A stretch of 64,000 bases of DNA, taken from assembly GCA_963759245.1 (NCBI GenBank), contig CAVWYN010000003.1, positions 896,672 through 960,671 on the forward strand, read 5' to 3'. Shown one piece after another: positions 1,624-56,968 of the stretch. Positions within the stretch are counted from its first letter, which is position 1. Each line of letters opens with the position of its first letter. Under the pieces are notes generated by a model. The model saw only the letters and a list, made by a program, of their open reading frames with translations. It had not been told where the DNA came from and made no database searches. A program made the position numbers and the translations under genes. The stretch is from Vulcanimicrobiota bacterium (GTDB taxonomy: Bacteria; Vulcanimicrobiota; Vulcanimicrobiia; Vulcanimicrobiales; Vulcanimicrobiaceae).

Positions 1624-3183
1624 ATGAACGCGACTCCCGTCTTGATCGCCGGGGCGGGGCCGACCGGGCTAGTGCTCGCGCTGAGTCTCGCGCGGCGCGG
1701 CGTTTCGTTTCGGATCATCGACGAAGCCGACGGTCCGGGCGAACACTCGCGCGCCATGGTCGTGCAGGCGCGAACCTTGGAGTTCTACCAACAGTTCGGC
1801 TTTGCCGACGAGGTAATCGCCGAAGGGATCGTCGTGCCCCAGCTGCGCATGCGCGTAACCGATCGCGGCCAGCGCCCGCGCGAGGTTTTCTCACTAACGT
1901 TCCGGGATATCGGGGCCGGCATCAGCCCATACCCGTTCGCGCTGACGTATCCGCAGGACGATCACGAGAAATTCCTGGGAAAGAAGTTGGATGAGCTGGG
2001 CGTCCGTGTGGAGTGGAACACAAGGCTTGCGGCATTGTCGCCCTTCGACTCCGCTCAGGGTGACAATGCCGCTCAGGGTGACAATGCCGCCGTGACCGCG
2101 ACGATCGAGGGGCCGGGCGGCAGCGAGGAGATCGCGGCGCAGTATCTGTGCGGCTGCGACGGCGCGCATTCGGTCGTGCGCACGGCGCTCGGCGTCGGAT
2201 TTGCCGGCACGACGTACGACCAGCACTTCTTCGTGTGCGACGCGAAGATCGCAGGCGACTTCATCACCGACCTCATCTTCACGCTGGGCGAAGATACGTT
2301 GGTGCTGATACTGCCGGTCCGCTCGAGCGGCATGCATCGGCTGATAGGCCTGGTACCGGCGGGCATTTCAAACGGTGAAAGCGTGACGTTCGACGCGATC
2401 CGCGACCGAATCGAACCATTCTTGGGCATCAAGGTCAGCGAGGTCAACTGGTTTGCGACCTACCGCGTCCATCATCGCGTCGCCGAGAAATTCCGCGTCG
2501 GCCCGGTCTTTATTCTGGGCGATGCGGCGCACATTCATAGCCCCGTCGGCGGCCAAGGAATGAACACGGGCATTGGCGATGCGGTGAATTTGGGTTGGAA
2601 GTTAGCCGACGCCATCCGCGGCAGGACGGCGCGGGGCGTCCTCGATTCGTTCGAGGAAGAGCGCATCGGCTTCGCGCGAGCGCTGGTCGAAACGACCGAC
2701 CGCGCGTTCACGGCGATCATCGCACGCGGCGAGAGGGGAGAATTGACGCGTCGGATGATGTTGCCGCTAATCATGCGCTTCGCCACGCGCTTTGCGGCGG
2801 TGCGTCACGCGCTGTTCCGCGTCGTTTCGCAGACGAGAATCCGCTATCCACATTCGAGCTTGAGCGAAGGCAAGGCCGGCGCCGTGCTCGGCGGCGATCG
2901 TCTGCTGTGGGTTGCGAGCCTGCACAACTTCGCTCCGCTGTGTTCGCTGGATTGGCAGTTACACGCGTACGGGCAGGCTGGTACGAACGTCAGCGCGAGC
3001 TGCGCTCGACTTGGCGTTCCGGTTTATTCGTTTCCTTGGAACGAGGATGCGCGGCGCGCCGGCTTCCCGCGCGATGCGATGTACTTGGTCCGGCCGGATG
3101 GCTACGTGGGACTCGCGCTCGAAACCGACGATGCTACGCGGTTCGACGCGTACGCCGGACGAATCGGGCTGCGCGCCGCCTAG
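1624..3183 (+). CDS. FAD-dependent aromatic-ring monooxygenase (PheA/TfdB-like)
   Basis: N-terminal GAGPTGL dinucleotide-binding motif, plus CGCDGAHSVVR and GDAAHIHSPVGGQGMNTGIGDA FAD-site motifs. Carries an in-frame REP-derived insert (2034-2088). Confidence 0.85.
   Translation: MNATPVLIAGAGPTGLVLALSLARRGVSFRIIDEADGPGEHSRAMVVQARTLEFYQQFGFADEVIAEGIVVPQLRMRVTDRGQRPREVFSLTFRDIGAGISPYPFALTYPQDDHEKFLGKKLDELGVRVEWNTRLAALSPFDSAQGDNAAQGDNAAVTATIEGPGGSEEIAAQYLCGCDGAHSVVRTALGVGFAGTTYDQHFFVCDAKIAGDFITDLIFTLGEDTLVLILPVRSSGMHRLIGLVPAGISNGESVTFDAIRDRIEPFLGIKVSEVNWFATYRVHHRVAEKFRVGPVFILGDAAHIHSPVGGQGMNTGIGDAVNLGWKLADAIRGRTARGVLDSFEEERIGFARALVETTDRAFTAIIARGERGELTRRMMLPLIMRFATRFAAVRHALFRVVSQTRIRYPHSSLSEGKAGAVLGGDRLLWVASLHNFAPLCSLDWQLHAYGQAGTNVSASCARLGVPVYSFPWNEDARRAGFPRDAMYLVRPDGYVGLALETDDATRFDAYAGRIGLRAA
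2034..2088 (+). repeat. REP-like hairpin embedded in-frame in a CDS, with 18-bp tandem duplication of its 3' arm
   Basis: cattgtcgccc-TTCGACTCCGCTCA-gggtgacaatg forms an 11-bp stem with one G-U pair. gctcagggtgacaatgcc occurs twice in tandem (2053-2070, 2071-2088). Translates as PFDSAQGDNAAQGDNAA. Confidence 0.8.
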
Positions 3184-3698
3184 CCGGTTTCACGCGAGCG
3201 GCCCAACTCACGTGCGCGTTCGACCATCTCGCGCATGCGCGGATGTTCGCCCGGTATCGTCTTCACCCACGATTCAAAGCGCGGCACGGTCTCGCCCGTT
3301 CGAAACAAGAAGTACCACACGTTCATGTCGCCCATGAACGCGAAGCGCTTCTTGAAATCTTTTGCGAGCACGGCATAGGATTCGAACGATCGCAGGTAGT
3401 TCGCGAATCCGCCGAACTCACGGTCGGTTTCGAGCAACGCTCGGGCGTTATGAATGACGGCGCGAACTTTACGCCGGATCTTGAGGAGACCGGGGGTCGC
3501 GAGAACGCGTTCGACGTCGATATCGTCGTACGCCGCAACTTTGGCCGGATCGAAGTCTTCGAACGCTTTTCGGTAGGCGCCCGAGTGTTCAGCGATCTGG
3601 CTCCATCTGACGCCGGCTTGGAACACTGCCCGCGTCATCACTTCCAAGTAGTCCGCCAACGAGGCGGGCTGGATGACGTCGGGAATCGTGTCGGCCAT
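3180..3698 (-). CDS. DNA-3-methyladenine glycosylase I (Tag)-family protein
   Basis: The core FQAGVRWSQI...FEDFDPAKVAAYDDIDVERVL...IRRKVRAVIHNARALL aligns by eye with E. coli Tag. Start trimmed to M42 (MADTIPD) because the upstream ORF extension is a translated REP copy. Tag zinc-site residues not recognised. Confidence 0.6.
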   Translation of the reverse strand: MADTIPDVIQPASLADYLEVMTRAVFQAGVRWSQIAEHSGAYRKAFEDFDPAKVAAYDDIDVERVLATPGLLKIRRKVRAVIHNARALLETDREFGGFANYLRSFESYAVLAKDFKKRFAFMGDMNVWYFLFRTGETVPRFESWVKTIPGEHPRMREMVERARELGRSRETG

Positions 3699-3717
3699 CG
3701 AGTGTGGCGTATTCCCG

Positions 3718-3748
3718 TGTGGCCCTTCGACTCCGCTGAGGGTGGTAG
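3718..3748 (+). repeat. degenerate REP-like copy
   Basis: ggcccTTCGACTCCGCTGAgggtgg: the loop is conserved but the arms are only weakly complementary. Confidence 0.4.
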
Positions 3749-3892
3749 GGGGAAGGGCGGTGGAGGCAGGGACGGGCAAGGCGGAGGTCGCAGGAAGCGG
3801 CACAAATGCTGCTCTCGTCACGTGGTTGGATTCTCGGAAGTTTCAGTTGCGAAGTCCGCACGGTAGGCAGAGTCTAAGGAGTTTCGGGTTCC

Positions 3893-4201
3893 GTGTACGT
3901 CGATGAAATGCTCAACTGTGTGGACTGTGGACGTCAGTTTGTCTTCAGTTCGGGCGAACAACGCTTTTACGAGCAAAAAGGGTTCCAGAACAAGCCCAAT
4001 CGCTGTCCCGACTGCCGCCAGGCGCGCAAGCAGATGCGTTCCAGCGGCGGCGGCGGCGGCGATCGCACGGGGCGTCCCCGCGAGATGTTTACGGCGACGT
4101 GCAGCCAGTGCGGCGGCGTGGCGGAGGTTCCGTTCAACCCGCGCGGAGATAAACCGGTCTATTGCCGGGATTGCTTCGCGTCGCGCCCGTCGTATCACTG
4201 A
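3893..4201 (+). CDS. zinc-ribbon domain protein (two CxxC-x17-CxxC units)
   Basis: CVDCGRQFVFSSGEQRFYEQKGFQNKPNRCPDC and CSQCGGVAEVPFNPRGDKPVYCRDC, separated by a Gly-rich linker. Alternative start at 3908 (MLNCVDCG). Confidence 0.7.
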   Translation: MYVDEMLNCVDCGRQFVFSSGEQRFYEQKGFQNKPNRCPDCRQARKQMRSSGGGGGDRTGRPREMFTATCSQCGGVAEVPFNPRGDKPVYCRDCFASRPSYH

Positions 4202-5733
4202 CGCCACGCAGCTCTTCACCGCCTAAGCGCTCCTACGACGCAGTCGTCATCGGCGCAGGCCATAACGGCCTGGCGTGCGCTGCGCTATTGGCGCGCGCGG
4301 GGCGTTCGGTCGCGGTCTTCGAGCGATCCGCGCGGATCGGTGGAGCCGCGGTCAGCGAGACCGATATCTGGCCGGGATACACGCTGTCGACGGCGTCGTA
4401 CGTGTGCAGCCTGCTCGACCCGTGGCTGGTCGAGGTGCTCGACCTGCGATCGCACGGCCTGTCGTACTATCGAAAAGATCCCTACGCATTTACGCCGCTC
4501 GAGGACGGGCGGTCGCTGCTCCTGGGAACCGACCGGCAGAGCAACGCGCGCGAGATCGCCGCATTCGACCGCGCTGACGTGGCGGGCTTCGAAGCCTACG
4601 TCGAACGCACGGATCGCCTGGGCAGGGCGCTGTTCGATTCGTTCTCAGACGACGAACCGCGTTTCGATCGCTTCGACGCCGAGACGCAGGGGCTGCTGCG
4701 GGGCTCCGCGGCGGATCTGGTGGAGCGCTTCGTTTCGACCTCCGTACTCCAAGCCGAACTCGTTAACGACGGCTTAATCGGAACGTATCTCGGGCCGCGC
4801 GATGCCGGGACCGGCTACGTTCTCGCGCATCACCTCGCCGGCCGTTTGCTGGGCACGCAAGGCGCGTGGGCGTACGTGCGGGGCGGGATGGGATCGGTTT
4901 CGCGCGCGCTGGCTTCGGCCGCGATTTCATATGGTGCGGAGATTTTTCCGGATGCGGGGGTGACGCGAATCGTTTCCGACGGCGACGCCGCGTGTGGCGT
5001 AGAGGTCGACGATGGCGTGACGAGGGCGAGGGCGGTCGTTTCCAACGCGCATCCGCGGACGACGTTTTTCGAGCTCCTCGATCCTACGATGCTCGACGCC
5101 GACTTCGTTTCGAAGGTTGAGGGTTGGAAGAGCAGCGGCCCGTCGTTGAAGTTGAATTTGGCTCTCGGCGAGCTGCCGAACTTTACGTGCCGCCCCGGCA
5201 GCGACGCGCAGCCGCATCATCGAGCGACGATTCACGTCGCGCCCAGCATCGAGTACTTACAGAAAGCCTACGAGGATGCGCGCGCCGGTGGAGAGAGTGA
5301 CGAGCCGCTGATCGAGTGCTTCCTGCAGACGCCGACCGACCCCGGGCTCGCGCCGCCCGGCAAACACATCCTCTCCGTTTTTGCGCAGTATTTTCCGTAC
5401 GATCGCGCCGGAGGCTGGTCGGGAGCAATGCGCGAGGCCGCGGCCGACAAGATCGTCGCGATCCTGGCGCGACTTGCGCCGAATCTCCCGAACGCGATCG
5501 AGCATCGCCAAGTATTGGCTCCGCCCGATCTCGAGGCGCGCTTCGGTCTGATCGGCGGCCACATCTTTCACGGCGAGCTGCTTCCGGGACAGATTTATGA
5601 GGACCGGTTTGCCGCGCGCACGCCGGTGCGCAATCTGTATCTATGCGGATCGGGCACGCATCCCGGCGGTTGCGTCAGCGGCTTTCCCGGAAAACGCGCC
5701 GCCAACGCCGTTTTGCTTAATTTGGTGCGGTAA
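4162..5733 (+). CDS. phytoene-desaturase-family NAD(P)/FAD-dependent oxidoreductase
   Basis: YDAVVIGAGHNGLACAALLARAGRSVAVFERSARIGGA Rossmann motif and C-terminal NLYLCGSGTHPGGCVSG motif. The TTG start overlaps the upstream gene, so the exact start is uncertain. Confidence 0.8.
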   Translation: MPGLLRVAPVVSLTPRSSSPPKRSYDAVVIGAGHNGLACAALLARAGRSVAVFERSARIGGAAVSETDIWPGYTLSTASYVCSLLDPWLVEVLDLRSHGLSYYRKDPYAFTPLEDGRSLLLGTDRQSNAREIAAFDRADVAGFEAYVERTDRLGRALFDSFSDDEPRFDRFDAETQGLLRGSAADLVERFVSTSVLQAELVNDGLIGTYLGPRDAGTGYVLAHHLAGRLLGTQGAWAYVRGGMGSVSRALASAAISYGAEIFPDAGVTRIVSDGDAACGVEVDDGVTRARAVVSNAHPRTTFFELLDPTMLDADFVSKVEGWKSSGPSLKLNLALGELPNFTCRPGSDAQPHHRATIHVAPSIEYLQKAYEDARAGGESDEPLIECFLQTPTDPGLAPPGKHILSVFAQYFPYDRAGGWSGAMREAAADKIVAILARLAPNLPNAIEHRQVLAPPDLEARFGLIGGHIFHGELLPGQIYEDRFAARTPVRNLYLCGSGTHPGGCVSGFPGKRAANAVLLNLVR

Positions 5734-5745
5734 TACCGCGGCAAC

Positions 5746-6039
5746 GTGCCGTTCATATGCCGCGGTTACACTGATGGGATGCATATCACGTGGAAACCGG
5801 TTCGCGACGGCGGCGATGGAGAGCGCGCCGGCCTGCCTAGCAGCGCGTTCGCTTTTCCGGAGGAGCGGAAAGAGCCGTTGACCGACGCCGCACACGTGCG
5901 CAGTGCGATCGCGCGTTTTGCCGAGGTGCGCGGCGTCAACGATACGGAGCGCGCTCAGGCCTTCGCGAACATCAAAGCGGCCGCCGAGTACTTCGGCATC
6001 GACATGAAGGCTACGACGTGGAACGATCTGGTTGGGTGA
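5746..6039 (+). CDS. small conserved protein (DUF6582-like), function unknown
   Basis: SAFAFPEERKEPLTDAAHVRSAIARFAEVRGV motif recalled from that family. Alternative ATG start at 5779. Confidence 0.45.
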   Translation: MPFICRGYTDGMHITWKPVRDGGDGERAGLPSSAFAFPEERKEPLTDAAHVRSAIARFAEVRGVNDTERAQAFANIKAAAEYFGIDMKATTWNDLVG

Positions 6040-6943
6040 GCTTTAGGACCTCTTCATCGGCGAGCTTTCGGTTTCCGAGGAGAATTAATACGACGGAAGC
6101 GATAACCGCGGCGCCGCCGGCGAGAATCCTCCACGTAACCGGCTCGTGCAAGATGAGCGTCCCCAGGATGACCGCAACGACCGGGTTGACGTAGCCGTAC
6201 GTCGCGACGGTGGCCGTCGGCAGCGTGCGAACGGCGTAAGCGAACGCGCTATAACCCAGCATCGCGCCCGCAGTGATCAGCCAGACCATTCCCCATAGCG
6301 AAGGACCTGAGATCGCGGCGATCTTCAAGTGCGCCGGCTCTCCAGTGACCAGGCCGACGACCAGGCAAAACAGGCCTCCAGCGGTCATCTCTAACGCCGC
6401 GGTCGTCGGTTGATAGTCGTTGCCTCGGGCGTAGACCGATCCGGTCGCCCACGAGATCGACGCAATGAGAATGATACAGGCAAAGAGCACGTCCGAGTGA
6501 CCGGCGCTCTTGCCGACGAGTATCGCGATGCCCGCGGTGCCGAGCACGAGGCCGGCGATTGCCGCGCTGCTAGGCGCAGTTCTCGAGCGCAACGCGTCGA
6601 GAAGCAACATCCAAATCGGAGTGCCTGCGAGCAAGAGGGCAGCGGTTCCCGATTCGACGCGCGTCTCGGCAACGCAGAGCAGCCCGTTTCCGAGCACCAG
6701 GAGAAGCACCGCCACGATCGCGATGCGCACGAGCTCCGCCCGGCTCGGCAGCGCGGGCTTCCCCTTCGTCACGACCCACTGCAGTGCAAACATCAGCGAT
6801 CCCGCGACGAAGTAGCGGACGCCCGTCATGAGATACGGCGGAATGGTCTCGACCGCAACGCGAATGCCGAGATACGTCGATCCCCACACGAAGTAGACGA
6901 CGACGAGCGCGATCCACGGCAGCGCACGATTCCAGCGCGTCAT
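6011..6943 (-). CDS. EamA/DMT-superfamily transporter
   Basis: 310 aa, about 10 hydrophobic helices as two EamA-like halves, with a typical N-terminus (WIALVVVYFVWGSTYLGIR). Confidence 0.85.
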   Translation of the reverse strand: MTRWNRALPWIALVVVYFVWGSTYLGIRVAVETIPPYLMTGVRYFVAGSLMFALQWVVTKGKPALPSRAELVRIAIVAVLLLVLGNGLLCVAETRVESGTAALLLAGTPIWMLLLDALRSRTAPSSAAIAGLVLGTAGIAILVGKSAGHSDVLFACIILIASISWATGSVYARGNDYQPTTAALEMTAGGLFCLVVGLVTGEPAHLKIAAISGPSLWGMVWLITAGAMLGYSAFAYAVRTLPTATVATYGYVNPVVAVILGTLILHEPVTWRILAGGAAVIASVVLILLGNRKLADEEVLKLTQPDRSTS

Positions 6944-6959
6944 TGGCTAGACGACAATG

Positions 6960-6983
6960 AAAAACCGCCGAGAGTTTCGGCGG
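6960..6983 (-). terminator. intrinsic-terminator-like hairpin downstream of the 7008-7190 ORF
   Basis: ccgccga-gagtt-tcggcgg stem-loop followed on the minus strand by TTTTT. It lies only about 20 nt upstream of the eamA start. Confidence 0.5.
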
Positions 6984-7007
6984 CTAAGTTTTTGGCGCTA
7001 ACGCTTG

Positions 7008-7190
7008 TCAGCGATGAAAGATGATGGTGAGGATCGTAGTGATCCACGTAGCGACGATGGTGCCGATCACCCAATTGAACCGCTGGTCGACGCCTTCAAG
7101 CCTACGGTCAATGTTGCCGAGCCGCTCGTTGATCTGATCGAAGGCGCCTTCCAGGTGCGCGATTCGCGGCTCAAGCGGGTGTGTGTGCAT
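7008..7190 (-). CDS. small membrane-anchored protein, function unknown
   Basis: 60-aa ORF with a heptad-like N-terminal half (LEGAFDQINERLGNIDRRLEGVDQRF) and a C-terminal TM helix (VIGTIVATWITTILTIIF), followed by a terminator-like hairpin. Confidence 0.4.
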   Translation of the reverse strand: MHTHPLEPRIAHLEGAFDQINERLGNIDRRLEGVDQRFNWVIGTIVATWITTILTIIFHR

Positions 7191-7317
7191 ACGGCCTCCT
7201 CAGAGAGTCTATCATATAGCCGGTTTCCCCGCTTGCTTCTCGCACGCGACATTGCCCGTTACCCGGGAGGGCGGCGACCGAGTGGGGTGTCGGGACACCA
7301 GGCCCGAATATTTCGGA

Positions 7318-7524
7318 ATGATTCAAGCAATGATCAGATGCCCAAACACCGGCAAAGCGGTTCCAACAGGGATTGTATTCGGGTCTCTCGCGACGTTTGA
7401 CAATACCACGCTGGACAACAATAGCGTCCGTTGCGCGGCATGCGGGCAGCAGCACGTGGTCGATAACTCGACCGTCAAAGTGTTTCCCAGCGAGGCGCCG
7501 GACGGAAATGGAAGCCAAGCCTAG
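7318..7524 (+). CDS. small Cys-pair (zinc-ribbon-like) protein, function unknown
   Basis: ATG at 7318 gives MIQAMIRCPNTGK...VRCAACGQQH, with CPxxG and CxxC pairs. The ORF-track N-terminal extension was discarded. Confidence 0.35.
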   Translation: MIQAMIRCPNTGKAVPTGIVFGSLATFDNTTLDNNSVRCAACGQQHVVDNSTVKVFPSEAPDGNGSQA

Positions 7525-7537
7525 CAGCTAGGCAAGC

Positions 7538-7715
7538 GGTCTCGATCGCGACGCGAATGCCAGATACGTCGATCCCTACACGAGATAGACGACGACGAGC
7601 GCGATCCACGGCAGCGCACGATTCCAGCGCGTCACTGGGTAGACGACAATAAAAACCGCCGAGAGTTTCGGTTGCTAAGTTTTCGGCGCTAACGTTTTGT
7701 CAGCCATGAAAGATG
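7538..7715 (-). pseudogene. degenerate duplicate of the eamA 5' end, its upstream hairpin and the 3' end of the small ORF
   Basis: Hand alignment to 6845-7023 gives about 14 substitutions and 3 single-base indels. The eamA ATG becomes GTG and the frame is broken. Confidence 0.7.
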
Positions 7716-7806
7716 TCACCCTTCGACTCGCTGCGCTCGCTCAGGGCGACACGGGCAGTTCGTCCTTCGACTCCGCTCGCTCACGCTCGCTCCGCTCAGG
7801 ATGACA
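7715..7806 (+). repeat. two-hairpin REP/BIME-like composite
   Basis: gtcaccc-TTCGACTCGCTGCGCTCGCTCA-gggcgac, a spacer, then cgtcc-TTCGACTCCGCTCGCTCACGCTCGCTCCGCTCA-ggatgac. Near-identical architecture at 56883-56968. Confidence 0.8.
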
Positions 7807-7894
7807 CTTGAAGCGCGCGCTCGATTAGATGACATTTGGGTGAAGCAGGCGGTTTCTCAGTAACTTCTACGTCGTTTGGCTGTAGGATTGCACT

Positions 7895-8467
7895 ATGAAT
7901 AAAAGCTTTCTCGCGCTGGCGCTTGCGCTCAGCGTCATTCCAGTTGCGGCACGGGCCGACGACGCCGCGCCGCCCCAACTGACCCCAGCACAGCGGCAGG
8001 CGATGCAGCAGACCTTCGAACGCTTCGCCACACAAGAAAAGCAGCTGCACCAGCAGATGCGGGCGCAGATACTCACGGCCATGACGCCGGTGCAGCGCCG
8101 GGCCGTCGCTGCCACGATCGGCGACCTCGCGATCGAGCCCAATCCGGATCCGGTCGCGGCCGCGAAGCGCCTCGACGCGATTCTCTCGCCGGGCGAGCGG
8201 CAGCGCATCATCGCCGCGCATTCGGCTTTCCAGTCGCAGAGCCGCCAGCTTCACGACCAAATGCGCACCGAGCTGACCAGCGAGATGCCGGCCGACATGC
8301 AGTCGCGCTTCGCGAATCACGAGAAGGACGAGCACGAGATGGCGCCCAGGCAGCTCGACGCCGGGACGCTACTCCTTCGCGTGCTCGTGCCGCGTCCGCA
8401 GATGATGGAGATGGGCGATCACGGGCACTTCATGATGCACATGGAGGGTGCACCGCCGCCGAGGTAA
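7895..8467 (+). CDS. periplasmic LTXXQ-motif (Spy/CpxP/ZraP-like) protein with His/Met-rich tail
   Basis: Signal peptide (ALALSVIPVAARA), repeated LTPAQRQAM / MTPVQRRAV / LSPGERQRI motifs, and C-terminal MMEMGDHGHFMMHMEG. Confidence 0.55.
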   Translation: MNKSFLALALALSVIPVAARADDAAPPQLTPAQRQAMQQTFERFATQEKQLHQQMRAQILTAMTPVQRRAVAATIGDLAIEPNPDPVAAAKRLDAILSPGERQRIIAAHSAFQSQSRQLHDQMRTELTSEMPADMQSRFANHEKDEHEMAPRQLDAGTLLLRVLVPRPQMMEMGDHGHFMMHMEGAPPPR

Positions 8468-8482
8468 GAAACAGCGAGCGGC

Positions 8483-9697: not shown

Positions 9698-10139
9698 ACG
9701 CCTTCACGAGACGTTCGATTCCGGCGCGATCCGCTTCACCGAACCGCGCCAACCGCGGGCTGTCGCAATCGAAGACGCCGGCGAACGCGCCGTCGATGAC
9801 GAGCGGCACGACGATCTCGGAGCGCGAGGCGACGTCGCACGCGATGTGATCGGCGAAGCTGCTGACGTCGTCGACGACGAGCGTCGAGCGCTGCGCGGCC
9901 GCTGCACCGCAGACGCCGCGTCCGGCCGCGATCCGCGTGCACGCGGGGCGTCCGCAGAACGGGCCGAGCGACAGATCGCCGGAGGGTGTCGCGAGGTAGA
10001 AGCCGGCCCAGTTGACGTCGGGCAGCGCGTGATAGACGAAGGCTGCGAAGTTTCCCGCGTTGGCGATGAAGTCGGTCTCTTCGGCGAGCAGCTCGCGAAC
10101 TTGCCGTTCGAGCTGGTCGTAGGATGCCGTCGCATTCAT
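9657..10139 (-). CDS. GAF-domain protein (free methionine-R-sulfoxide reductase-like)
   Basis: 160 aa from MNATASYDQ, with NWAGFYL...GPFCGRPACTRI...GVCG...IACD motifs typical of the YebR/MsrC-type GAF. The start ATG overlaps the upstream stop (ATGA at 10136-10139). The 444-aa ORF-track version was rejected. Confidence 0.7.
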   Translation of the reverse strand: MNATASYDQLERQVRELLAEETDFIANAGNFAAFVYHALPDVNWAGFYLATPSGDLSLGPFCGRPACTRIAAGRGVCGAAAAQRSTLVVDDVSSFADHIACDVASRSEIVVPLVIDGAFAGVFDCDSPRLARFGEADRAGIERLVKAFSESVRLPERFAR

Positions 10140-11155
10140 AGCGGGTACGGGTTCGGGGCGTAGATCGATTTGCGTGAGCCGTCCACAGTGAGCGTAAACC
10201 AGGGATCCGCCGTGCGTTTGCGCAGGAGGTCGAAACGCTCGCCGTCGCGCGCCACGTGCGAGACGCCAACCGTGTAGCGAAGCGGCCGCTCCGGCTCGAG
10301 AAGCGGGGGCGTCGCGGCGCGTACGAGATAGGCGCCGCGTCCGCCCGCGGCGTTGAGCACCGTGGCGGTCCCGTCGGGATCGACGACGACCGAGCTCGCC
10401 TGATCGATGCCCAGCCCGTAGACCACAGAGGCGTTCGGCAGCAGGCGATCGTGGAGAATTCGTGCCAGAAAGACGACCATTCGTCCGAAGCGGTCGCGCA
10501 CGACGAGATGCGTGTCGGTGATCGTGTCGGCCAATACCGGCCACGCGAAGAGTCCCGTCGTAAAACTTATGCGCGCCTCGAGCGGATCGGCGACGGCATC
10601 GCGCGTGTGCGTATCGTGATTCAGACGGTCCGCGGCTACGGAATCGTAGACGACCGCGCCTTGGATCGCCAAGCCGGCGCTGCCGCCGCCCACGACTCCG
10701 CCGCGCGCGTAGACGCGTTTGACTGCCGCGATGAGCGCCGAGCCCTTCCACGCGACGTAATGCGCTTGATCCCCGCCCGCAAAGTAGACGGCGTCGGCGC
10801 GGTCGACGACCGGCGCGACCGAATCTACCTCGGCGCTCGACGCGCAGGGCGGGATCAGGACGGTCTGCACCGACGCGAAGTTCCCATATTCGTAGAACGG
10901 ACGGTCGTAGATGTTTCGATCCGACGCGCGCAATACGACAATATTGCCGCCGCGCGCGTTCGTATTTCCTAACAGCCGCCGATGCAGCCATCGCAACGAC
11001 GAGTTGGGCGCCTCCAACGCGCCCGCGCCGTCCAGCAGCAGGCCCGGGCCGTGCAGCCGCGCCGTTGCAACATACGTTCCGTAGCGCGGAAATACGGTAA
11101 TCGAGCAGTTGGGCGGTGCGATCGATAGCGCGGCGACGAGCGCCGTGGCAAGCAT
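10136..11155 (-). CDS. peptidase S51 / cyanophycinase-like protein
   Basis: AVYFAGGDQ and GGVVGGGSAGLAIQG (nucleophile-elbow GGSAG) motifs. Confidence 0.65.
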   Translation of the reverse strand: MLATALVAALSIAPPNCSITVFPRYGTYVATARLHGPGLLLDGAGALEAPNSSLRWLHRRLLGNTNARGGNIVVLRASDRNIYDRPFYEYGNFASVQTVLIPPCASSAEVDSVAPVVDRADAVYFAGGDQAHYVAWKGSALIAAVKRVYARGGVVGGGSAGLAIQGAVVYDSVAADRLNHDTHTRDAVADPLEARISFTTGLFAWPVLADTITDTHLVVRDRFGRMVVFLARILHDRLLPNASVVYGLGIDQASSVVVDPDGTATVLNAAGGRGAYLVRAATPPLLEPERPLRYTVGVSHVARDGERFDLLRKRTADPWFTLTVDGSRKSIYAPNPYPL

Positions 11156-11158
11156 TGC

Positions 11159-11276
11159 GTCATCCTTCGACTCCGCTCAGGATGACACTGCTCCGCTCGG
11201 GATGACACTGCTTCGCTCGGGACGACACTAGTGGTACAATGGGAATCGGTCATCCTTCGACTCCGCTCAGGATGAC
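11159..11276 (+). repeat. REP-like locus: two hairpins plus a 3x20-bp tandem arm repeat
   Basis: gtcatcc-TTCGACTCCGCTCA-ggatgac at 11159-11186 and 11249-11276. ctccgctcaggatgacactg / ctccgctcgggatgacactg / cttcgctcgggacgacacta lie in tandem at 11171-11230. Confidence 0.85.
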
Positions 11277-11299
11277 AATGAAAAAGGAGGGTTTGCCGA

Positions 11300-12280
11300 A
11301 TGCGCACCCTGACACTGATCCTCGCGGCTTTATTCCTAGTATCGTGCGGAGGAACCGGCGTACCGACGATTCCGCAAAACGCCGTCGGACTCGGCGTGAG
11401 CCACACGATTACGCCGACCATACCGATCGTCGGCGGCTGCCAAATCTTTCCCGCGGATAACTGGTGGAACACCGACATCTCCAACTATCCGTTGGATCCG
11501 CTCTCGGACGCTTACATCAACGCGCTACCTGGAAATCTGCATCCCGACTTCGGCCAGAATCCGGATTATGGGATTCCGTTCAACATCGTTCCGAGCACGC
11601 AGAAAAAGGTGCCGGTCAAGTTCTACTACAAATCGCAGAGCGATCCCGGGCCGTACCCGATTCCGAAGAACGCGCAGATCGAAGGCGGTCGAAAGTCCAC
11701 CGGCGACCGGCACGTCTTAGTGTTGCAGCAGGGAACGTGCAAGCTTTACGAGATGTGGGACGCGCACGAGTACAATCACGGCCAGCGATGGACGGCGGGC
11801 TCGGGCGCGATCTTTCCGCTCAATACGAACAAGCTTCGCCCCGACGGCTGGACCTCAGCCGACGCCGCCGGGCTGCCGATCCTGCCGGCGCTGGTAAAGT
11901 GCGACGAAGTCAAGGCTGGACTCATCGAACACGCGCTGCGCGTGACCTTCAGCGCGACGCAGCGAGGCTACATTCATCCGGCAACGCATTTCGCCAGCAA
12001 CAGCTATAAGAAGACCCTCCCGCCGATGGGGCTGCGCATCCGGATGAAGGCGTCGTACAACATCTCGGGCATCACGGGACAGTCCTACGTCATCGCCGTC
12101 GCGATGAAGAAATACGGCATGTTCGTAGCCGACAACGGCTCGAACTGGTACTTCCAGGGCGAGGGCGGCACGAATTCGTCCTGCTGGAACGACAACGATC
12201 TGGACCAACTCAAAAACGTCCCCAATAGCGCCTTCGAGGTGGTGAAGACCGGAAAGATCCTGCGGAAAGGCGGTCTGTAG
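11300..12280 (+). CDS. lipoprotein of unknown function
   Basis: Lipobox LFLVSCGG, RBS AAGGAGG upstream, normal-complexity 326-aa ORF. No family recognised. Confidence 0.6.
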   Translation: MRTLTLILAALFLVSCGGTGVPTIPQNAVGLGVSHTITPTIPIVGGCQIFPADNWWNTDISNYPLDPLSDAYINALPGNLHPDFGQNPDYGIPFNIVPSTQKKVPVKFYYKSQSDPGPYPIPKNAQIEGGRKSTGDRHVLVLQQGTCKLYEMWDAHEYNHGQRWTAGSGAIFPLNTNKLRPDGWTSADAAGLPILPALVKCDEVKAGLIEHALRVTFSATQRGYIHPATHFASNSYKKTLPPMGLRIRMKASYNISGITGQSYVIAVAMKKYGMFVADNGSNWYFQGEGGTNSSCWNDNDLDQLKNVPNSAFEVVKTGKILRKGGL

Positions 12281-13159: not shown

Positions 13160-13162
13160 CCG

Positions 13163-45922: not shown

Positions 45923-45939
45923 CTCACCGCGTCACGGCA

Positions 45940-49252: not shown

Positions 49253-49328
49253 GTCTGGAGCATCCGGGGCACCAGAGCGAGGGCCTTTCGGCCTCCCTGC
49301 GAGTAACTGATTAGTAGGGAACGATACC

Positions 49329-50843: not shown

Positions 50844-50936
50844 ACCCAAGAGTGCCGAACTTCGTGCCGAGTCCGAAGCGCCTGTACGGCGTATCCGCCC
50901 CTAGCTGATATCGTTATGGCGCTGGAGGATCTGAGG

Positions 50937-51947: not shown

Positions 51948-52030
51948 GCGATCGGTAATTCTGATGACCTTTTGTTCTCTTGTTAGGTTTTTTTGAGGAC
52001 TTTTTACTCGGCGAGACCTAGGCTTGACGA

Positions 52031-52564
52031 GTGCGAGGTACGTTCGGGACAGCTTTGAAGTCACGCGTTTACGCTATCTGCACGGGGCTGCGCGTCTACG
52101 CCGGCGTGCTTTGGCTGCTCTATGGAACCTCGAAGCTGCCCGACTGGCTCTTCAGCGGCAGCGAACTCGTGAAGACGACGCGGGACATGATCAAAACGAC
52201 TGGGGGGCCTTATCACAATTTCGTCGTGAGCGTGGTGATCCCGCACGGACAAACCTTCGCCGCACTCATCGCAGTGGGCGAGACGCTCTGCGGTATCTCG
52301 CTGCTGCTTGGGCTTTTTGGGAAGCTTGGGGGCATAGGTGGCATGTTCCTGACACTAAACTACTGGATGACGGGAGGGCAATATTCAAGCTACTGGGGTC
52401 TCATCAGTCTTGAGGCGGTCATTTTCGTGCTCAGCCTCTTGACCGTGCTGTTACCTACGGAAGAGTACCTCAGCGTGGATAAAGTACTTGTGCGGCTGCC
52501 GTTTGCCAAACGCATCTATCGCGCTCGAGGACAGGATGGCACCCAGCACCAGCTAAACGGCTAG
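52031..52564 (+). CDS. DoxX-like membrane protein
   Basis: Same helix pattern as 16962-17414 (VGETLCGISLLLG...LTLNYWM). Confidence 0.5.
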   Translation: MRGTFGTALKSRVYAICTGLRVYAGVLWLLYGTSKLPDWLFSGSELVKTTRDMIKTTGGPYHNFVVSVVIPHGQTFAALIAVGETLCGISLLLGLFGKLGGIGGMFLTLNYWMTGGQYSSYWGLISLEAVIFVLSLLTVLLPTEEYLSVDKVLVRLPFAKRIYRARGQDGTQHQLNG

Positions 52565-52857
52565 CCTCTGCGATCTCGTCTGCGCGGCGCAAAGGTGCAA
52601 CTTACGCAGGCGAATCGCTGGCGATTACGCCGCGTTGGAGCCTTTCGTGGATCGTCCTTGAGCGGCTCAGGGAATCCGCTGCTGCCGTCGCAGCCTTCGG
52701 GCAGCTGCCGCGCGACATGCGCGAAGCACTTACCGGAGGGCCGCGCCGGGCACTTCCGGCGGATGGCAACCGGCCGGCAACCGCGGAGCCCCGGCACCAG
52801 AAGGCTCACAGGAGACTAGGCCTCAAGAGTCCTGTAAAATAAAGCAAGGCACCGTGC

Positions 52858-52935
52858 GCGCCCGTAGCTCAAACTGGATAGAGCAGGGGACTCCTAAGCC
52901 CAAGGTTGCCAGTTCGATTCTGGCCGGGCGCACCA
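52858..52935 (+). tRNA. tRNA-Arg (anticodon CCT)
   Basis: Hand-folded cloverleaf: acceptor GCGCCCG/CGGGCGC, D arm GCTC/GAGC, anticodon loop CTCCTAA, T arm GCCAG-TTCGATT-CTGGC, encoded CCA. The anticodon stem has only three central G-C pairs. Confidence 0.8.
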
Positions 52936-53035
52936 TGCTTCGACTCCGCTCAGCATGACAGTGGCAGCTCCGTCCTTCGTCCTGCCTGCGCTCAAGGATG
53001 GCAGGTGTTGCGCGCCTTCGCTAAAGGCGGCTGCT
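52934..53035 (+). repeat. REP-like hairpin cluster abutting tRNA-Arg
   Basis: CATGC-TTCGACTCCGCTCA-GCATG, whose 5' arm begins with the CA of the tRNA CCA end. Followed by related hairpins (ccgtcctt...aaggatgg; gcctt-cgcta-aaggc). Confidence 0.75.
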
Positions 53036-53155
53036 TCCTTATAAAGGGCTTCCTGGCCGAGGCGACCCGGGCAGACGGGTCTACGAGGGACTCCGCTTGC
53101 TTCCTAGGTGGTGGCCGTTGCGGCCCGCCGGGTGGTATGCTAGCATGAACCTTGG

Positions 53156-53179
53156 AACGGACCGGCGGTCCGTTTTATT
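53156..53179 (+). terminator. terminator-like hairpin 20 nt upstream of rpmG
   Basis: aacggacc-ggc-ggtccgtt followed by a T-rich tract (ttttatt). Either the tRNA-Arg unit terminator or an rpmG attenuator. Confidence 0.45.
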
Positions 53180-53199
53180 CATGTTGTGGTAGACTACTG

Positions 53200-53364
53200 A
53201 TGGCAAAGAAAGAGACGCGCGTGGTGGTGGTTCTGGCCTGCACGGTGTGCAAGCGCCGTAACTACAACACGCAGAAGAACAAATCGAAGACGACGGACCG
53301 GCTGGAGCTGAAGAAATACTGCCGCTTCTGCCGCAAGCACAACCCACACCGCGAGACCAGATAG
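53200..53364 (+). CDS. rpmG: 50S ribosomal protein L33
   Basis: [54 protein letters not shown], 54 aa with CxxC...CxxC. Conserved position before tRNA-Trp and secE. Confidence 0.95.
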
Positions 53365-53372
53365 AAGAGCGG

Positions 53373-53448
53373 AGGGCGGTAGCTCAATTGGTAGAGTCCT
53401 GGTCTCCAAAACCAGTTGTTGCAGGTTCGAGTCCTGTCCGCCCTGCCA
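53373..53448 (+). tRNA. tRNA-Trp (anticodon CCA)
   Basis: Hand-folded 76-nt cloverleaf: acceptor AGGGCGG/CCGCCCT, anticodon arm CTGGT-CTCCAAA-ACCAG, T loop TTCGAGT, encoded CCA. Confidence 0.95.
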
Positions 53449-53474
53449 CCCTTCGACTCGGCTCAGGGTGACAA
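53447..53474 (+). repeat. REP-like hairpin abutting tRNA-Trp
   Basis: CACCC-TTCGACTCGGCTCA-GGGTG. The 5' arm begins with the CA of the tRNA CCA end. Confidence 0.8.
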
Positions 53475-53489
53475 TATGGAAGTGAATAT

Positions 53490-53714
53490 TTGGTGAACGA
53501 ACAGCAGAAGAGAACGGCTCAGTCGATGGCGGGCGGCGATTTCGTTCGCGGCGTCATCGCGGAGCTGCGCCGCGTCACGTGGCCGACGCGCGACGAATGG
53601 ATCTCGGCTACGGTGCTGACGATCGCGCTGGTCGTGGGCATCGGACTCTTCACGTTCGTTGTCGACCAGCTTTTCGGCTGGCTCTTCAGTCTGATCCATC
53701 CCGCGACGGGATAA
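53490..53714 (+). CDS. secE: preprotein translocase subunit SecE
   Basis: FVRGVIAELRRVTWPTRDEW followed by a single TM helix. Conserved position before nusG. TTG or GTG start. Confidence 0.85.
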   Translation: MVNEQQKRTAQSMAGGDFVRGVIAELRRVTWPTRDEWISATVLTIALVVGIGLFTFVVDQLFGWLFSLIHPATG

Positions 53715-53724
53715 CCCAATAGTC

Positions 53725-54445
53725 ATGTACGATATCGAGAATCAAGAGCTCGGGACGGCCGAGCCGCCGCACGAAGAAGCGATCATCGACGACACCCAAA
53801 TGGGCGACGTCGCCGGCGCGACCGAAGCGCCGCTCGCCGAGGAGGCGCCTCAATTCAGAGGCCGAGCCCGGCGCTGAGCTGGAGGCCGAGGCCGCTCCGG
53901 CCAAGCCGAAGGACAACCGGAACTGGTTCGTCGTGCACACGTACTCCGGGTACGAAAACAAGGTCAAGGCGAATCTCGAGCGCCGCATCCATTCGATGGG
54001 CATGCAGGACAAGATCTTCCGCGTGCTCGTTCCCATGGAAGACGAAGTCGAGTTCAAGGACGGCAAGCGCAAGATCACGCCCAAGAAAGTCTTCCCGGGC
54101 TACGTGCTCGTCGAGATGATCATGGACGATCAGTCCTGGTACGTCGTGCGCAACACGCAGGGCGTGACGGGATTCGTGGGAAGTCCGGGGCCGGGCGAGA
54201 AACCTGTCCCGCTGCAAGACAAAGAGGTCAAGACGATCCTCAAGCAGATGGGCATCGAGGCGCCGAAGCTCAAGATCGACTTCAAGAAGGGCGACCGCGT
54301 CAAGGTGACGTCGGGACCGTTCTTCGACTTCACCGGCGTCGTCGACGAGATCGCGCCGGAGAAGGAGCGCCTGCGCGCGCTCATCTCGATCTTCGGGCGC
54401 GAGACCCCGGTCGAGTTGGAGTTTTTCCAGGTAGAAAAAGTCTAG
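53725..54445 (+). CDS. nusG: transcription termination/antitermination factor NusG, with an apparent +1 frameshift near 53857
   Basis: NGN ([15 protein letters not shown]) and KOW ([20 protein letters not shown]) motifs. No canonical start (ATG/GTG/TTG) precedes the NGN strand in the main frame. The acidic N-terminal extension starting at ATG 53725 is in the -1 frame and stops at 53875. Confidence 0.8.
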
Positions 54446-54460
54446 TCAACGTAAAACTTC

Positions 54461-54545
54461 GTGTCATCCTTCGACTCCGCTCAGGATGACACACGCGCTT
54501 GTCCTTCGACTGCGGCGCTCCGCGCCTTCGCTCAGGATGACAAGC
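54461..54545 (+). repeat. two-hairpin REP/BIME-like composite between nusG and rplK
   Basis: gtgtcatcc-TTCGACTCCGCTCA-ggatgacac (9-bp stem), then cttgtcc-TTCGACTGCGGCGCTCCGCGCCTTCGCTCA-ggatgacaag. Confidence 0.85.
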
Positions 54546-54599
54546 AGACACTCGAGTGGAGGAGAAGCGACGAAGATCGCTTCGACAAAGGAGACATTC

Positions 54600-55025
54600 G
54601 TGGCCAAAAGAGTTGTAGGCAAGATCGGCCTACAGATTCCGGCAGGCAAGGCAACGCCCGCGCCGCCGATCGGTCCGGCACTCGGACCCTACTCGCTCAA
54701 CATCATGGATTTCTGCAAGCAGTACAACGAGCGTACTGCGTCGCAGGCGGGCATGATCATTCCGGTCGAGATCACGGTTTTCGAAGACCGGACGTTTACG
54801 TTTATCACGAAGACGCCGCCCGCGTCGTTCTTGATCAAGCAGGCGCTGAACCTCGAGTCGGGCAGCAAGGAGCCGAATCGCAATAAGGTCGGCAAACTGA
54901 CGAACAAACAGCTCGAAGAGATCGCCAAGGTCAAGATGCCGGACATCAACGCGAACGACATCGAGGCGGCGAAGAAGATCGTCGCGGGGACGGCGCGCTC
55001 GATGGGAGTCGAGGTGGAGGCGTAA
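54600..55025 (+). CDS. rplK: 50S ribosomal protein L11
   Basis: GTG 54600 with AAGGAG upstream. [39 protein letters not shown]. Confidence 0.95.
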
Positions 55026-55026
55026 G

Positions 55027-55728
55027 ATGCCGCAACATCATGGAAAACGATTCAAAGCGCTGGTCGCCGGCTTCGATTCGAAGCGGCTCTTCTCGACGCC
55101 TGAAGCGATCGCTATCGTGAAGCGCAACGCCAATGCGAAGTTCAACGAGACGGTCGAGGCGCACATTCGGCTCGGCGTCGATCCGAAGAAGAGCGATCAA
55201 AACGTGCGCGGCACGGTGCTCTTGCCGCACGGCACCGGACGCACGGTGCGAGTGATCGCTTTCGCCAAGGGCGATAATGCGAAGGCCGCGCAAGAAGCCG
55301 GCGCCGACATCGTCGGCGATCAGGATCTGATCGACCGCGTCAAGGCAGGGTTCATGGAGTTCGACGTGGCCGTGGCGACGCCGGATATGATGGCGCAGGT
55401 CGGCAAAGAGCTCGGGCGCATCCTCGCGCAGAAGATGCCGAACCCCAAGGCCGGCACGGTCACGCCGAACATCGGCAGCGCGATTCGAGACATCAAGGCC
55501 GGTAAGGTGGAGTTCCGCCCCGACAAGACCGGCATCATTCACACGATCGTCGGCAAGGCCGGCTTCGAAGAGCAGCACCTGCTCGAGAACATCACGACCC
55601 TGCTCGACGCGATCGTTCGCGCGAAGCCCGCGGCCGCGAAAGGCACGTACCTGCACAGCGTGACGCTCGCGAGCACGATGGGGCCGGGCGTTAAAGTCGA
55701 TCCGAATCGGGTGAAGGCGACGGCGTAG
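55027..55728 (+). CDS. rplA: 50S ribosomal protein L1
   Basis: [33 protein letters not shown]... 233 aa, 1 nt after rplK. Confidence 0.95.
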
Positions 55729-55762
55729 TCTGGGTCGCGTCCCGACGATCGAGACCCCGCGG

Positions 55763-56281
55763 TTGAGATTGCGCAACTGGCGGGATGCTGACGTAGAGTC
55801 GTGGGTTGCTATGAACGCCGATCCGCGCGTCACGGAGTTTCTCGGGAGAAGTTATACGCGCGCGCTTTCCGAGTCGCAAGCTTTTGCGATGCGGCGGCAG
55901 TTAGAGCTTCTTGGTTACGGATGGTGGGTCGTTGAAGTCCGCGGCGGAGCGCCGTTCGCCGGAGTCGTCGCCCTGCAAGACGTCCCGTTCGAGGCGCCGT
56001 TCACGCCCGCTCGAGAGGTCGGCTGGCGCTTCGCCTACGACCACTGGGGACACGGATACGCGACGGAAGGAGCGCGCGCTGCGCTTGATTTTGCGTTCGA
56101 ACGGCTGGGATGGCACGAGGTCGTCGCCTTCACCGCAGCGCTGAACCTTCGCTCGCAAAAGGTGATGGAGCGATTGGGGATGACCCACGATCCAAGCGAT
56201 GATTTCGACCATCCGCGAATCCCGGAGGGTGATCCGCTGCGCCGCCACCTGTTATATCGCGCTCGCCCGGTGGGGGTGTGA
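55763..56281 (+). CDS. GNAT-family N-acetyltransferase (RimJ/RimL-like)
   Basis: (IETP)RLRLRNWRDADVESWVAMNADPRVTEFLG N-terminal signature and a WGHGYATEGARAALDFAF acetyl-CoA motif. Similarity seems to extend ~6 codons upstream of the TTG start, with no canonical start there. Confidence 0.7.
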   Translation: MRLRNWRDADVESWVAMNADPRVTEFLGRSYTRALSESQAFAMRRQLELLGYGWWVVEVRGGAPFAGVVALQDVPFEAPFTPAREVGWRFAYDHWGHGYATEGARAALDFAFERLGWHEVVAFTAALNLRSQKVMERLGMTHDPSDDFDHPRIPEGDPLRRHLLYRARPVGV

Positions 56282-56855
56282 GTTGCGCGTCGGGCGCGAT
56301 GACGTGCTTCGGCAGCGGTTGCGGAGTTTCGCTCGTGGGCTCGGCGCAGACGAGTTTTTGAGTGCGATCCGTTGAGGCTTGCAGCACGTCGCCCCTAGCG
56401 ACCACAGCGTCGTGCGCGTGGACGCCGAAGCTCAAGAACCCCGACCGGACACCTCCGACGAACTTCTTTTCGAACGCGACGTAAATCGTGTCGCCGCAAA
56501 AGTTGACGATGTCGTCGAGATAGAAGTCTACCTCTTCCGAAGTTTCATTCTCGAATTGGCGCTTCGTTTGATTGGTCTGCGTGTCGTAGTGCCCTTCGGC
56601 TAGATCCCCGGATTTCGCGATGACGTAGCCGTTGACGATAACGTCTTGGTCGACTGCGAATTTGACCTTGTGCTCTGCCTGCGACGAACCGTACGCTCCG
56701 ACGCGCACTTCCTTCGTGACAAGGATCGGCACGACAACGCCGCGCTCGATCGTGATCGACGCTTCGGTCGCTTGCGGCTGCGGCGACGGCGTCGGGTCGG
56801 AGCCGAGAAGACAAAGCAGACCAGCTACCAAGAGCAGCGTTGAGCGTTTTGTCAT
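56130..56855 (-). CDS. lipoprotein-like secreted protein, function unknown
   Basis: ATG 56855 gives MTKRSTLLLVAGLLCLLGS. The last ~50 codons overlap the convergent GNAT gene and are Pro/Gly/Arg-rich, so the true 3' end is doubtful. Confidence 0.4.
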   Translation of the reverse strand: MTKRSTLLLVAGLLCLLGSDPTPSPQPQATEASITIERGVVVPILVTKEVRVGAYGSSQAEHKVKFAVDQDVIVNGYVIAKSGDLAEGHYDTQTNQTKRQFENETSEEVDFYLDDIVNFCGDTIYVAFEKKFVGGVRSGFLSFGVHAHDAVVARGDVLQASTDRTQKLVCAEPTSETPQPLPKHVIAPDAQLTPPPGERDITGGGAADHPPGFADGRNHRLDRGSSPIAPSPFASEGSALR

Positions 56856-56882
56856 GTAATAATTCTGCGCCGTCCTCACCTG

Positions 56883-56968
56883 GTCACCCTTCGACTCGCT
56901 ACGCTCGCTCAGGGCGACATCGCATGGGTCCTTCGACTCCGGCGCTGCGCGCCTCCGCTCAGGATGAC
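56883..56968 (+). repeat. two-hairpin REP/BIME-like composite overlapping a gene 3' end
   Basis: gtcaccc-TTCGACTCGCTACGCTCGCTCA-gggcgac, then gggtcc-TTCGACTCCGGCGCTGCGCGCCTCCGCTCA-ggatgac. The ggatgac arm encodes the final Ser-Ser-stop of 56959-58830. Confidence 0.85.

Follow-up and report, generated by a model that had tools for sequence, protein, structure and literature searches.

The 64,000-nt stretch of Vulcanimicrobiota DNA analysed here (part of contig CAVWYN010000003.1; the whole stretch is referred to as the window) contains a family of short hairpin repeats. We consider it likely that these units are solitary copies of a hairpin that forms both ends of a small cassette resembling an insertion sequence (IS), in which an inverted hairpin, a gene for a single-domain GIY-YIG protein of ~95 aa and a forward hairpin would follow one another in that order. 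The evidence consists of the repeat family itself, covariation in its stem, the linkage of the gene to the hairpins and the geometry of the two, the homology of the protein, and turnover of the repeat between strains, all of which are observed. The units in the window are solitary satellites of the hairpin repeat; using tblastn, no GIY-YIG gene was found in the 64 kb, and none was found in the corresponding loci of syntenic relatives.

The hairpin family and the gene that it flanks

Written out, the hairpin of this family is GTCAYCCTTCGACTCCGCTCAGGRTGACA. Exact matches to the 28-mer GTCAYCCTTCGACTCCGCTCAGGRTGAC were found in species-representative genomes across many phyla, at least 116 stretches in all, and the element is therefore repeated well outside the genome studied here. 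The hosts among the matches listed include Eremiobacterota, Bacteroidota, Ignavibacteriales, Zixibacteria, Peregrinibacteria/Peribacteria, Spirochaetota, Acidobacteriota, Latescibacterota and others, and the same 28-nt end is kept letter-for-letter in members of the candidate phyla radiation (CPR), Bacteroidota and Eremiobacterota. An 18-nt core was found without mismatch in 70 stretches from IMG/VR, with G+C contents from 31% to 69%. Many of the genomes with matches carry the hairpin together with an inverted partner copy whose stem differs. In Eremiobacterota, the right half is often repeated in tandem after the hairpin, two to six times, each time with a locus-specific spacer of ~10 nt. The core sequence was not found in any of the papers searched.

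Among the ORFs (open reading frames) of at least 80 aa that were clustered across the 116 hairpin loci, which here and below are those among the matches listed, there was a single recurrent small neighbour family, present at nine loci in Bacteroidota and Eremiobacterota. The protein is ~95 aa long with one GIY-YIG domain (Pfam E values 1e-16 to 1e-20), and no NCBIfam model matches it. Its closest solved structures are the UPF0213 proteins 1zg2 and 1ywl (profile E values 1e-20 and 6e-17, respectively). The other recurrent clusters near the hairpin were ordinary ABC-transporter and beta-propeller-like proteins. The anatomy of the gene loci is constant, namely an inverted hairpin 10-130 nt upstream of the gene and a forward hairpin that overlaps its 3' end, with the TGTCA tips of both hairpins and any arrays of half-repeats pointing outward. 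Because of this overlap, the protein ends in ..SPFDSAQGD... The gene thus provides a concrete partner enzyme for a repeat that annotators have been translating into junk peptides such as PFDSAQGD.

The gene was found in three Eremiobacterota metagenome-assembled genomes (MAGs), L151, L152 and L175 in our numbering of the comparison DNA. In L152 (2375-2700), both flanking hairpins are present but the GIY-YIG gene appears disrupted, as its alignment falls into two parts that differ in frame; this is probably a decaying copy.

As an independent test, 80 metagenome loci were collected by protein similarity alone, after repeat-encoded tails had been trimmed from the query. At these loci the core (with up to 2 mismatches) occurs 1.61 times per kb within 200 nt of the gene and 0.086 times per kb elsewhere, a 19-fold difference. 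Nearly all of the loci that lack the exact loop have the same design with another loop middle, for example TTCGACAAGCTCA, TTCGAGTGCCTCA or CTCGACTGCGCTCG, and long variants with an inner hairpin are also found at gene loci selected in this way. A flanking hairpin of the generic form, with the stem checked, was present at 66 of 88 gene loci, and the loop was identical on both flanks at 22 of 37 loci, where 3.6 would be expected. Hairpins with outward tags thus lie on both sides of the gene at the nine hairpin-selected loci and at most of the 80 protein-selected loci, all of them in relatives, outside the window.

The initial annotation had proposed that the arms of the hairpin vary while staying complementary, and hence that a stem is being preserved. 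At the level of the family, the covariation is real. In an alignment of 92 copies chosen by their loop, 84% of cells are paired (65.8% in shuffles), and the covariation score is 0.508 compared with 0.161 for shuffled sequences and 0.06-0.12 for slid partners. Compensatory changes in this alignment are confined to the four pairs adjoining the loop. Among 228 unique loop-selected copies, three loop-adjacent pairs are paired in 81-90% of cases versus 42-64% when shuffled, and swap freely among CG, GC, TA and AT. The end bases of what was taken as the loop also covary, T..A alternating with C..G and no mixed cases occurring among gene-flanking copies. The first and last 'loop' bases therefore pair, leaving a loop of 12 nt.

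Stem preservation does not extend to the whole of the arms. In about 45% of family members, the left arm either has no outer GTCA or has one that does not pair. The right TGAC is invariant in 95-99% of the 92 copies, whereas the opposite arm is conserved in 52-70%. As the left GTCA is found in only about half of the copies, the right end is a conserved sequence tag and not merely half of a stem. The base after the right TGAC is A in 62% of copies. The tag reads TGTC in 62% of copies and CGTC in 16%. A conserved NGTCAY-type tag that lies 5' of the palindrome and gives it a direction is therefore present, with GTCA on the recognised strand. In the window, the short units fold far better than shuffled sequences (z about -5), whereas the long units (7760, 54498, 56925 and 52966) and those with a 22-nt loop (7712 and 56880) show no such advantage over shuffles (z -1.8 to +1.4).

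Other arrangements of the core were seen in the comparison DNA. In L003, L043 and L059, which are GC-rich contigs from IMG/VR, the halves of the core are iterated separately as (CCTTCGACTC)n and then (CGCTCAGGGCANGC)m. Their flanks (GGGCAGGC and GGGACCG) form no GTCA/TGAC stem, and these contigs therefore represent another sub-class of the core. In L008, L011, L020, L025, L036 and L052, also from IMG/VR, TTCGACTCCGCTCA pairs with its own reverse complement, TGAGCGGAGTCGAA, 10-20 nt downstream, so that the core is there an arm and not a loop. A 2.5-kb contig in a Thaumarchaeota bin (L107) carries the exact 28-mer, for which mis-binning is a more likely explanation than a true archaeal copy. A Bacteroidia MAG (L129) contains, at about 6000-7000, a tandem array of at least 10 hairpins in one orientation with a period of 52 nt, and a GIY-YIG gene with its forward hairpin is located inside this array.

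Units in the window and their turnover between strains

The window was searched on both strands, unfiltered, with a covariance model built from the 92 copies, most of which come from other genomes and some from the window. The model returned exactly 13 units, all on the + strand, at eight loci (Table 1), in agreement with the earlier count of at least 13 hairpins at eight loci and with their reported single orientation. There was no independent copy on the minus strand, where the model detected only weaker mirror images at the sites of + strand units. The short units at 2034, 11156, 11246, 52929, 53442 and 54460 have the consensus GTCAYCC-TTCGACTCCGCTCA-GGRTGACA. The 14-mer TTCGACTCCGCTCA is found exclusively on the + strand, as are variants of it with one mismatch, at the loci that had been cited, and the right-half marker CTCAGGRYGAC is found 11 times, each time on the + strand, where 0.1 occurrences would be expected. 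Every arm variant listed in the initial annotation is present in the sequence. Three loci had been described as carrying two hairpins. These doublets were found, and there is a further one at 52934, where the next unit, at 52966, is degenerate. Five loci had been assigned to the tRNA/ribosomal-protein cluster, where we count four.

Table 1. Hairpin units found in the window with the covariance model
Position	Strand	Unit	Context	Score (bits)
2034..2087	+	Short unit, 11-bp arms CATTGTCGCCC / GGGTGACAATG, with one tandem 18-nt copy of its right half attached (sequence reading)	In-frame within the FAD monooxygenase ORF 1624-3183; encodes ..LSPFDSAQGDNAAQGDNA.. (sequence reading)	47.9
3716..3749	+	Degenerate unit, GTGGCCC TTCGACTCCGCTGA GGGTGGT	Divergent intergenic, ~20 nt upstream of the start of a minus-strand adenine glycosylase (gene calls of syntenic L267)	32
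7712..7753	+	22-nt-loop unit (TTCGACTCGCTGCGCTCGCTCA) with an A.C stem mismatch		19.1
7760..7807	+	Long unit with an expanded CGCTCG-rich loop		21.8
11156..11229	+	Canonical short unit, then two tandem 20-nt right-half-plus-spacer copies	Minus-strand gene with its start codon 4 nt from the beginning of the unit	49.8
11246..11279	+	Canonical short unit	21 nt upstream of a + strand gene at 11300	49.4
52929..52962	+	Short unit, arms CATGC / GCATG	Left arm overlaps the CCA end of tRNA-Arg (52858-52935)	45.7
52966..53005	+	Degenerate long unit		14.1 (E 0.1)
53442..53475	+	Short unit	CCA end of tRNA-Trp (53373-53448) is the left arm	42.3
54460..54493	+	Canonical short unit	nusG-rplK spacer	50.2
54498..54542	+	Long unit with an inner GC-rich hairpin		14.9
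56880..56921	+	22-nt-loop unit	Between convergent genes	18.6
56925..56969	+	Long unit with an inner GGCGC/GCGCC hairpin	Right arm contains the stop codon of a minus-strand GAF-domain gene (56959-58830)	14.7

Proteins encoded in the window have their best matches in Candidatus Cybelea, Baltobacteraceae and Eremiobacteraeota, and Eremiobacterota is accordingly the most likely phylum of the window. Three loci are in divergent intergenic positions (3716, 7712/7760 and 11156/11246), and the CCA ends of tRNA-Arg and tRNA-Trp, the two tRNAs detected by ARAGORN, are each abutted by a locus. The insert at 2034 adds 12 aa relative to 12 homologues of the FAD monooxygenase, and is shared with a relative that is 97% identical.

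Turnover was examined using very close contigs (flanks 98-100% identical) and a more distant Eremiobacterota MAG (L120). After tRNA-Trp, L269 has an empty site (CCA|GCTTT|TGGAAG) that is filled in the window, other strains having CCA|CCCTTCGACTCSGCTCAGGGTGACAATA|TGGAAG. In L120, precisely the left half of the loop, 9 nt long, is missing from the unit at this position. No unit follows the orthologous tRNA-Arg in L120. The set of units in the nusG-rplK spacer changes from strain to strain with few exceptions, and in one strain a unit is inserted within the loop of another; the ortholog of the 54460 unit in L120 shows a compensatory change from T-A to C-G, and the long unit at 54498 is absent from L120 and other strains. 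L267 and L268 have additional units at the 7760 site, a different number of right-half copies at 11156 and an additional 22-nt right-half copy at 11246. The in-frame 18-nt unit of the monooxygenase is present in two copies in the window and in three copies in L267 (912-2492), and P0001 is 2 aa shorter; the insert acts as a small repeat-driven protein-length polymorphism. According to these differences between strains, breakpoints fall within the loop and at a position a few bases beyond the TGACA tag. Turnover of this kind is the type of evidence needed to decide between active mobile elements and domesticated devices of genome dynamics.

The single orientation holds for the window and its syntenic strains, where 11 loci are + and one is -, but not as a rule for the family, as mixed orientation within 8 kb is common in other genomes. 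GC skew is positive across the window. There was no link between orientation and skew in the 116 other loci. The forward strand is G-rich in 51 copies and C-rich in 52 copies from other genomes (27 versus 32 in Eremiobacterota), and a replication-linked orientation was therefore rejected. An orientation fixed relative to genes was also rejected as it is inconsistent between GC classes, though ORF calling was crude. Nevertheless, regional co-orientation seems real. In contig CAWHRL010000001.1 (824-968 kb; L113, L145 and L165), six clusters are + and none - over 144 kb, with a forward strand that is slightly C-rich, unlike that of the window.

Three further features of the window were noted. Read on the minus strand, 11150-11190 has GAAGGA ~9 nt upstream of the ATG of the gene at 10136-11155, and the repeat may therefore supply a ribosome-binding site. 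Between 55763 and 59600, rplKA and rplJL are split by an acetyltransferase gene, the minus-strand GAF-domain gene and a carbonic anhydrase gene (L270/L271 gene calls), an unusual interruption of a conserved cluster that is common to related strains. A clean terminator-like hairpin followed by a T run (GGAACGGACCGGCGGTCCGTTTTATT) is located at 53153-53177, just upstream of rpmG; it is kept in L120 and bears no relation to the repeat family.

Proposed mechanism and alternative readings

A model for the cassette is provided by the Ssn proteins, single-domain GIY-YIG nucleases of ~94 aa (CDD family cd10448) whose genes each lie between two hairpin repeats, called NTS in Neisseria and SRM generically (Chenal 2025, PMC11893778). 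SsnA binds the hairpin as single-stranded DNA (ssDNA) only, and one strand only. It cuts a few nt upstream of a conserved CGTCAT tag and leaves double-stranded DNA and RNA untouched. The NTS-ssnA-NTS layout was likened to an insertion sequence, and the role of such systems outside Neisseria was left open (PMC11893778). By analogy with Neisseria SsnA, the nuclease considered here would bind its hairpin as ssDNA only, on the strand that reads 5'-TGTCAY-hairpin. As all 13 units are on the + strand, this tag-first strand would be the minus strand for every unit in the window. The nick is predicted to fall a few bases 5' of the TGTCAY tag, and the position of the outer breakpoint deduced from the strain comparison matches the SsnA cut relative to the tag, as judged from one clean empty/filled pair, the phases of the tandem copies being ambiguous. 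Repair of the nick and copying between copies might then spread the repeat, produce the outward tandem duplications of the tag-bearing half, and lead to nested insertions and to units being gained and lost rapidly from strain to strain. The long same-strand runs in the window and in the 144-kb stretch could arise from strand-specific exposure to the nuclease.

A different relationship between the two components would be that the hairpins are an older, independent REP-like population on which the GIY-YIG gene preys as a parasite of the homing type, landing beside or between hairpins without being the cause of their multiplication. The gene is present at only nine of the 116 hairpin loci, with solitary hairpins far outnumbering gene copies, and in L129 it sits within the array with the 52-nt period; protein type and loop type are also only weakly coupled. 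However, the flanking hairpins are usually identical and inverted with their tips outward, as would be the case for the ends of an element and not for a split target, and the pairing holds across phyla and loop types. The published SsnA, moreover, cuts beside the repeat and not in a repeat-free allele (PMC11893778). We regard this explanation as improbable.

The hairpins could also be host RNA elements, that is terminators, mRNA stabilisers or tRNA-processing signals. Both tRNA genes in the window are directly followed by a unit, units are found in ribosomal-protein spacers, and in other high-GC genomes 14 convergent intergenic copies were counted versus three divergent ones. When all of the comparison DNA is considered, however, a unit abuts the 3' end of only about 3 of 26 tRNAs, and the arrangement is not general; the units at tRNA-Trp and tRNA-Arg are missing in close relatives. 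None of the units has the pattern of a terminator or a T run, and no terminator was called at the units between 52800 and 57100. In Rfam 15 only the two tRNAs reach the threshold, and the units score nothing even at E values up to 10, so that a known RNA family or ribozyme was rejected. One unit, moreover, lies in-frame within a coding gene and others occupy three divergent promoter regions, and units are present or absent between strains whose flanks are 98-100% identical. Their orientation to the flanking genes is inconsistent between genomes, and SsnA is inactive on RNA (PMC11893778). The role as a terminator or stabiliser raised in the initial annotation therefore finds no support; a role at the RNA level is unlikely, and that the family consists of such elements seems to us very improbable. 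Derivation from a duplicated tRNA T-arm or 3' end was rejected separately, as the loop sequence TTCGACT is T-loop-like but its flanks form no T stem and ARAGORN finds only the two tRNAs.

The initial annotation viewed the repeats as a REP/BIME-like family and suggested a RAYT or an IS200/IS605-type transposase elsewhere in the genome as partner. The description as interspersed hairpins with a covarying stem, composite loci and dynamics between strains stands, and REP/RAYT is the best-known precedent for short interspersed palindromes of this kind. The RAYT part of the description does not stand. The consensus nnnGTCAnnCTTCGACTCCGCTCAGnnTGACAnn has no GTAG tag. The doublets in the window are direct and not alternating, contrary to the proposed BIME-like mosaics, though inverted doublets do occur in other phyla. 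The sole recurrent small neighbour at the 116 loci is the GIY-YIG gene. ORF clustering of these loci revealed no Y1 transposase flanked by the repeats, though no Y1-specific profile was run and a rare RAYT could be missed. The related repeats with a CGTC tag, moreover, are not flanked by RAYT genes (Di Nocera 2013, PMC3733652). Mobilisation by a RAYT (Y1 transposase) encoded elsewhere in this genome is thus extremely improbable.

Several observations weigh against the reading of the units as solitary ends of a GIY-YIG cassette. There is no nuclease gene in the window or in the syntenic loci, and dependence on one elsewhere in this genome is therefore assumed. Binding and cleavage of ssDNA by this clade, and the way in which the copies multiply, are inferred. 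The published SRM motif, HGTCWYN(0-2)YYVSBRHN(0-5)WNVSBRGN(0-2)RNCYNB, matches no unit in the window, where its sole match is at 61845 and shuffled sequences give 0-3 matches; it also has no match in the 88 gene loci of the clade, while NTS controls were recognised. The clade is slightly nearer to UPF0213 (38% identity) than to NTS-linked Ssn (34%), and its biochemistry could therefore differ. Protein similarity tracks loop type only weakly (0.569 versus 0.550, p 0.03), and the proposed nuclease model leaves the regional single orientation unexplained.

Beyond the cassette itself, a broader claim would be that these elements constitute a distinct, cross-phylum class of IS-like mobile elements whose sole protein is a ~95-aa GIY-YIG nuclease acting on ssDNA hairpin ends, and whose solitary ends proliferate, invade genes in-frame and turn over. 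We advance this claim only tentatively and view it with some doubt.

Relation to known repeat systems

Several known systems resemble the present one in part. REP/REPIN-RAYT systems and the BIMEs of E. coli share with it, in outline, a hairpin that is recognised as ssDNA (here putatively), one small nuclease gene between inverted copies and many non-autonomous copies. They differ in that the nuclease here is a GIY-YIG protein instead of an HUH Y1 transposase, GTAG is absent and the doublets are direct. CGTC-tagged repeats, represented by Neisseria dRS3 and Rickettsia RPE-4/6, have no dedicated transposase (PMC3733652). Like the units described here, they are tagged interspersed palindromes, some of them intragenic, often dimeric and without an associated RAYT. 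However, they are characterised by a CGTC tag, a stem of 8-9 bp, a loop of 4-5 nt and a CCA-like tail, and the present family has a tag that is TGTC in the majority of copies, a 12-nt loop and no conserved CCA tail. The unit at 2034 recalls the Rickettsia palindromic elements, as it is an in-frame insert that occupies a surface loop of an enzyme whose gene is intact and is kept in two strains, but the sequence family and host are different and the in-frame 18-nt tandem copies vary.

The UPF0213 or Slx1-like proteins (1zg2, 1ywl) have the same minimal single-domain form and are the nearest structures to the flanked protein. In contrast to it, stand-alone prokaryotic Slx1-like GIY-YIG proteins are regarded as repair enzymes, and no association with repeats was described for them (Dunin-Horkawicz 2006, PMC1564403). 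A search of the literature for GIY-YIG together with REP, RAYT or MITE (miniature inverted-repeat transposable element) found nothing, and a search for GIY-YIG plus inverted repeat led to Chenal 2025.

As the same hairpins flank a GIY-YIG gene in relatives, we group the family with the Ssn/hairpin-repeat systems and not with classical REP/RAYT. NTS-flanked Ssn genes were recovered from IMG/VR and have outward tags, like the present cassette. Compared with these, the clade has 34% identity in BLASTP (E 1e-12), with tblastn E values of 1e-9 to 1e-13, whereas Ssn and UPF0213 are 27% identical to each other. One of the recovered examples, in L324 (6604-9523), is a canonical NTS-ssn-NTS cassette in which the gene (7826-8137) has an NTS on one side, at 7785, and an inverted NTS on the other, at 8141. 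It belongs to a phage or prophage, where its neighbours are a portal-like and a terminase-like gene, and phage genomes are therefore among the vehicles of Ssn cassettes.

The Ssn/SRM systems and the present one have in common a gene for a single-domain GIY-YIG protein of ~95 aa with inverted hairpins of 20-50 nt on both sides, an NGTCAY tag at the outer 5' end, many scattered solitary copies, and a distribution over many phyla. The repeats themselves are different. The one described here is TGTCAYCC-TGAGCGGAGTCGAA-GGRTGAC, with the tag within the stem and a loop of 12 nt, whereas NTS is CGTCAT-TCCCGCG-MAV-CGCGGGAAT. The hosts also differ, and here include Eremiobacterota, Bacteroidota, Zixibacteria, CPR and others. 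Judged from these sequence comparisons, the system shares the architecture of Ssn/SRM and is homologous to it, with what appears to be a separate protein clade and a separate class of repeat, and the cassette is best placed within, or as sister to, the Ssn/SRM systems, a kind of element first described in 2025. It would point to a large, unrecognised class of nuclease/hairpin pairs in poorly studied phyla that is missed by the published motif, although its hairpin can be defined clearly and shows extreme conservation. As the Ssn proteins are the first known site-specific endonucleases that act only on ssDNA, each such pair is also a potential tool.

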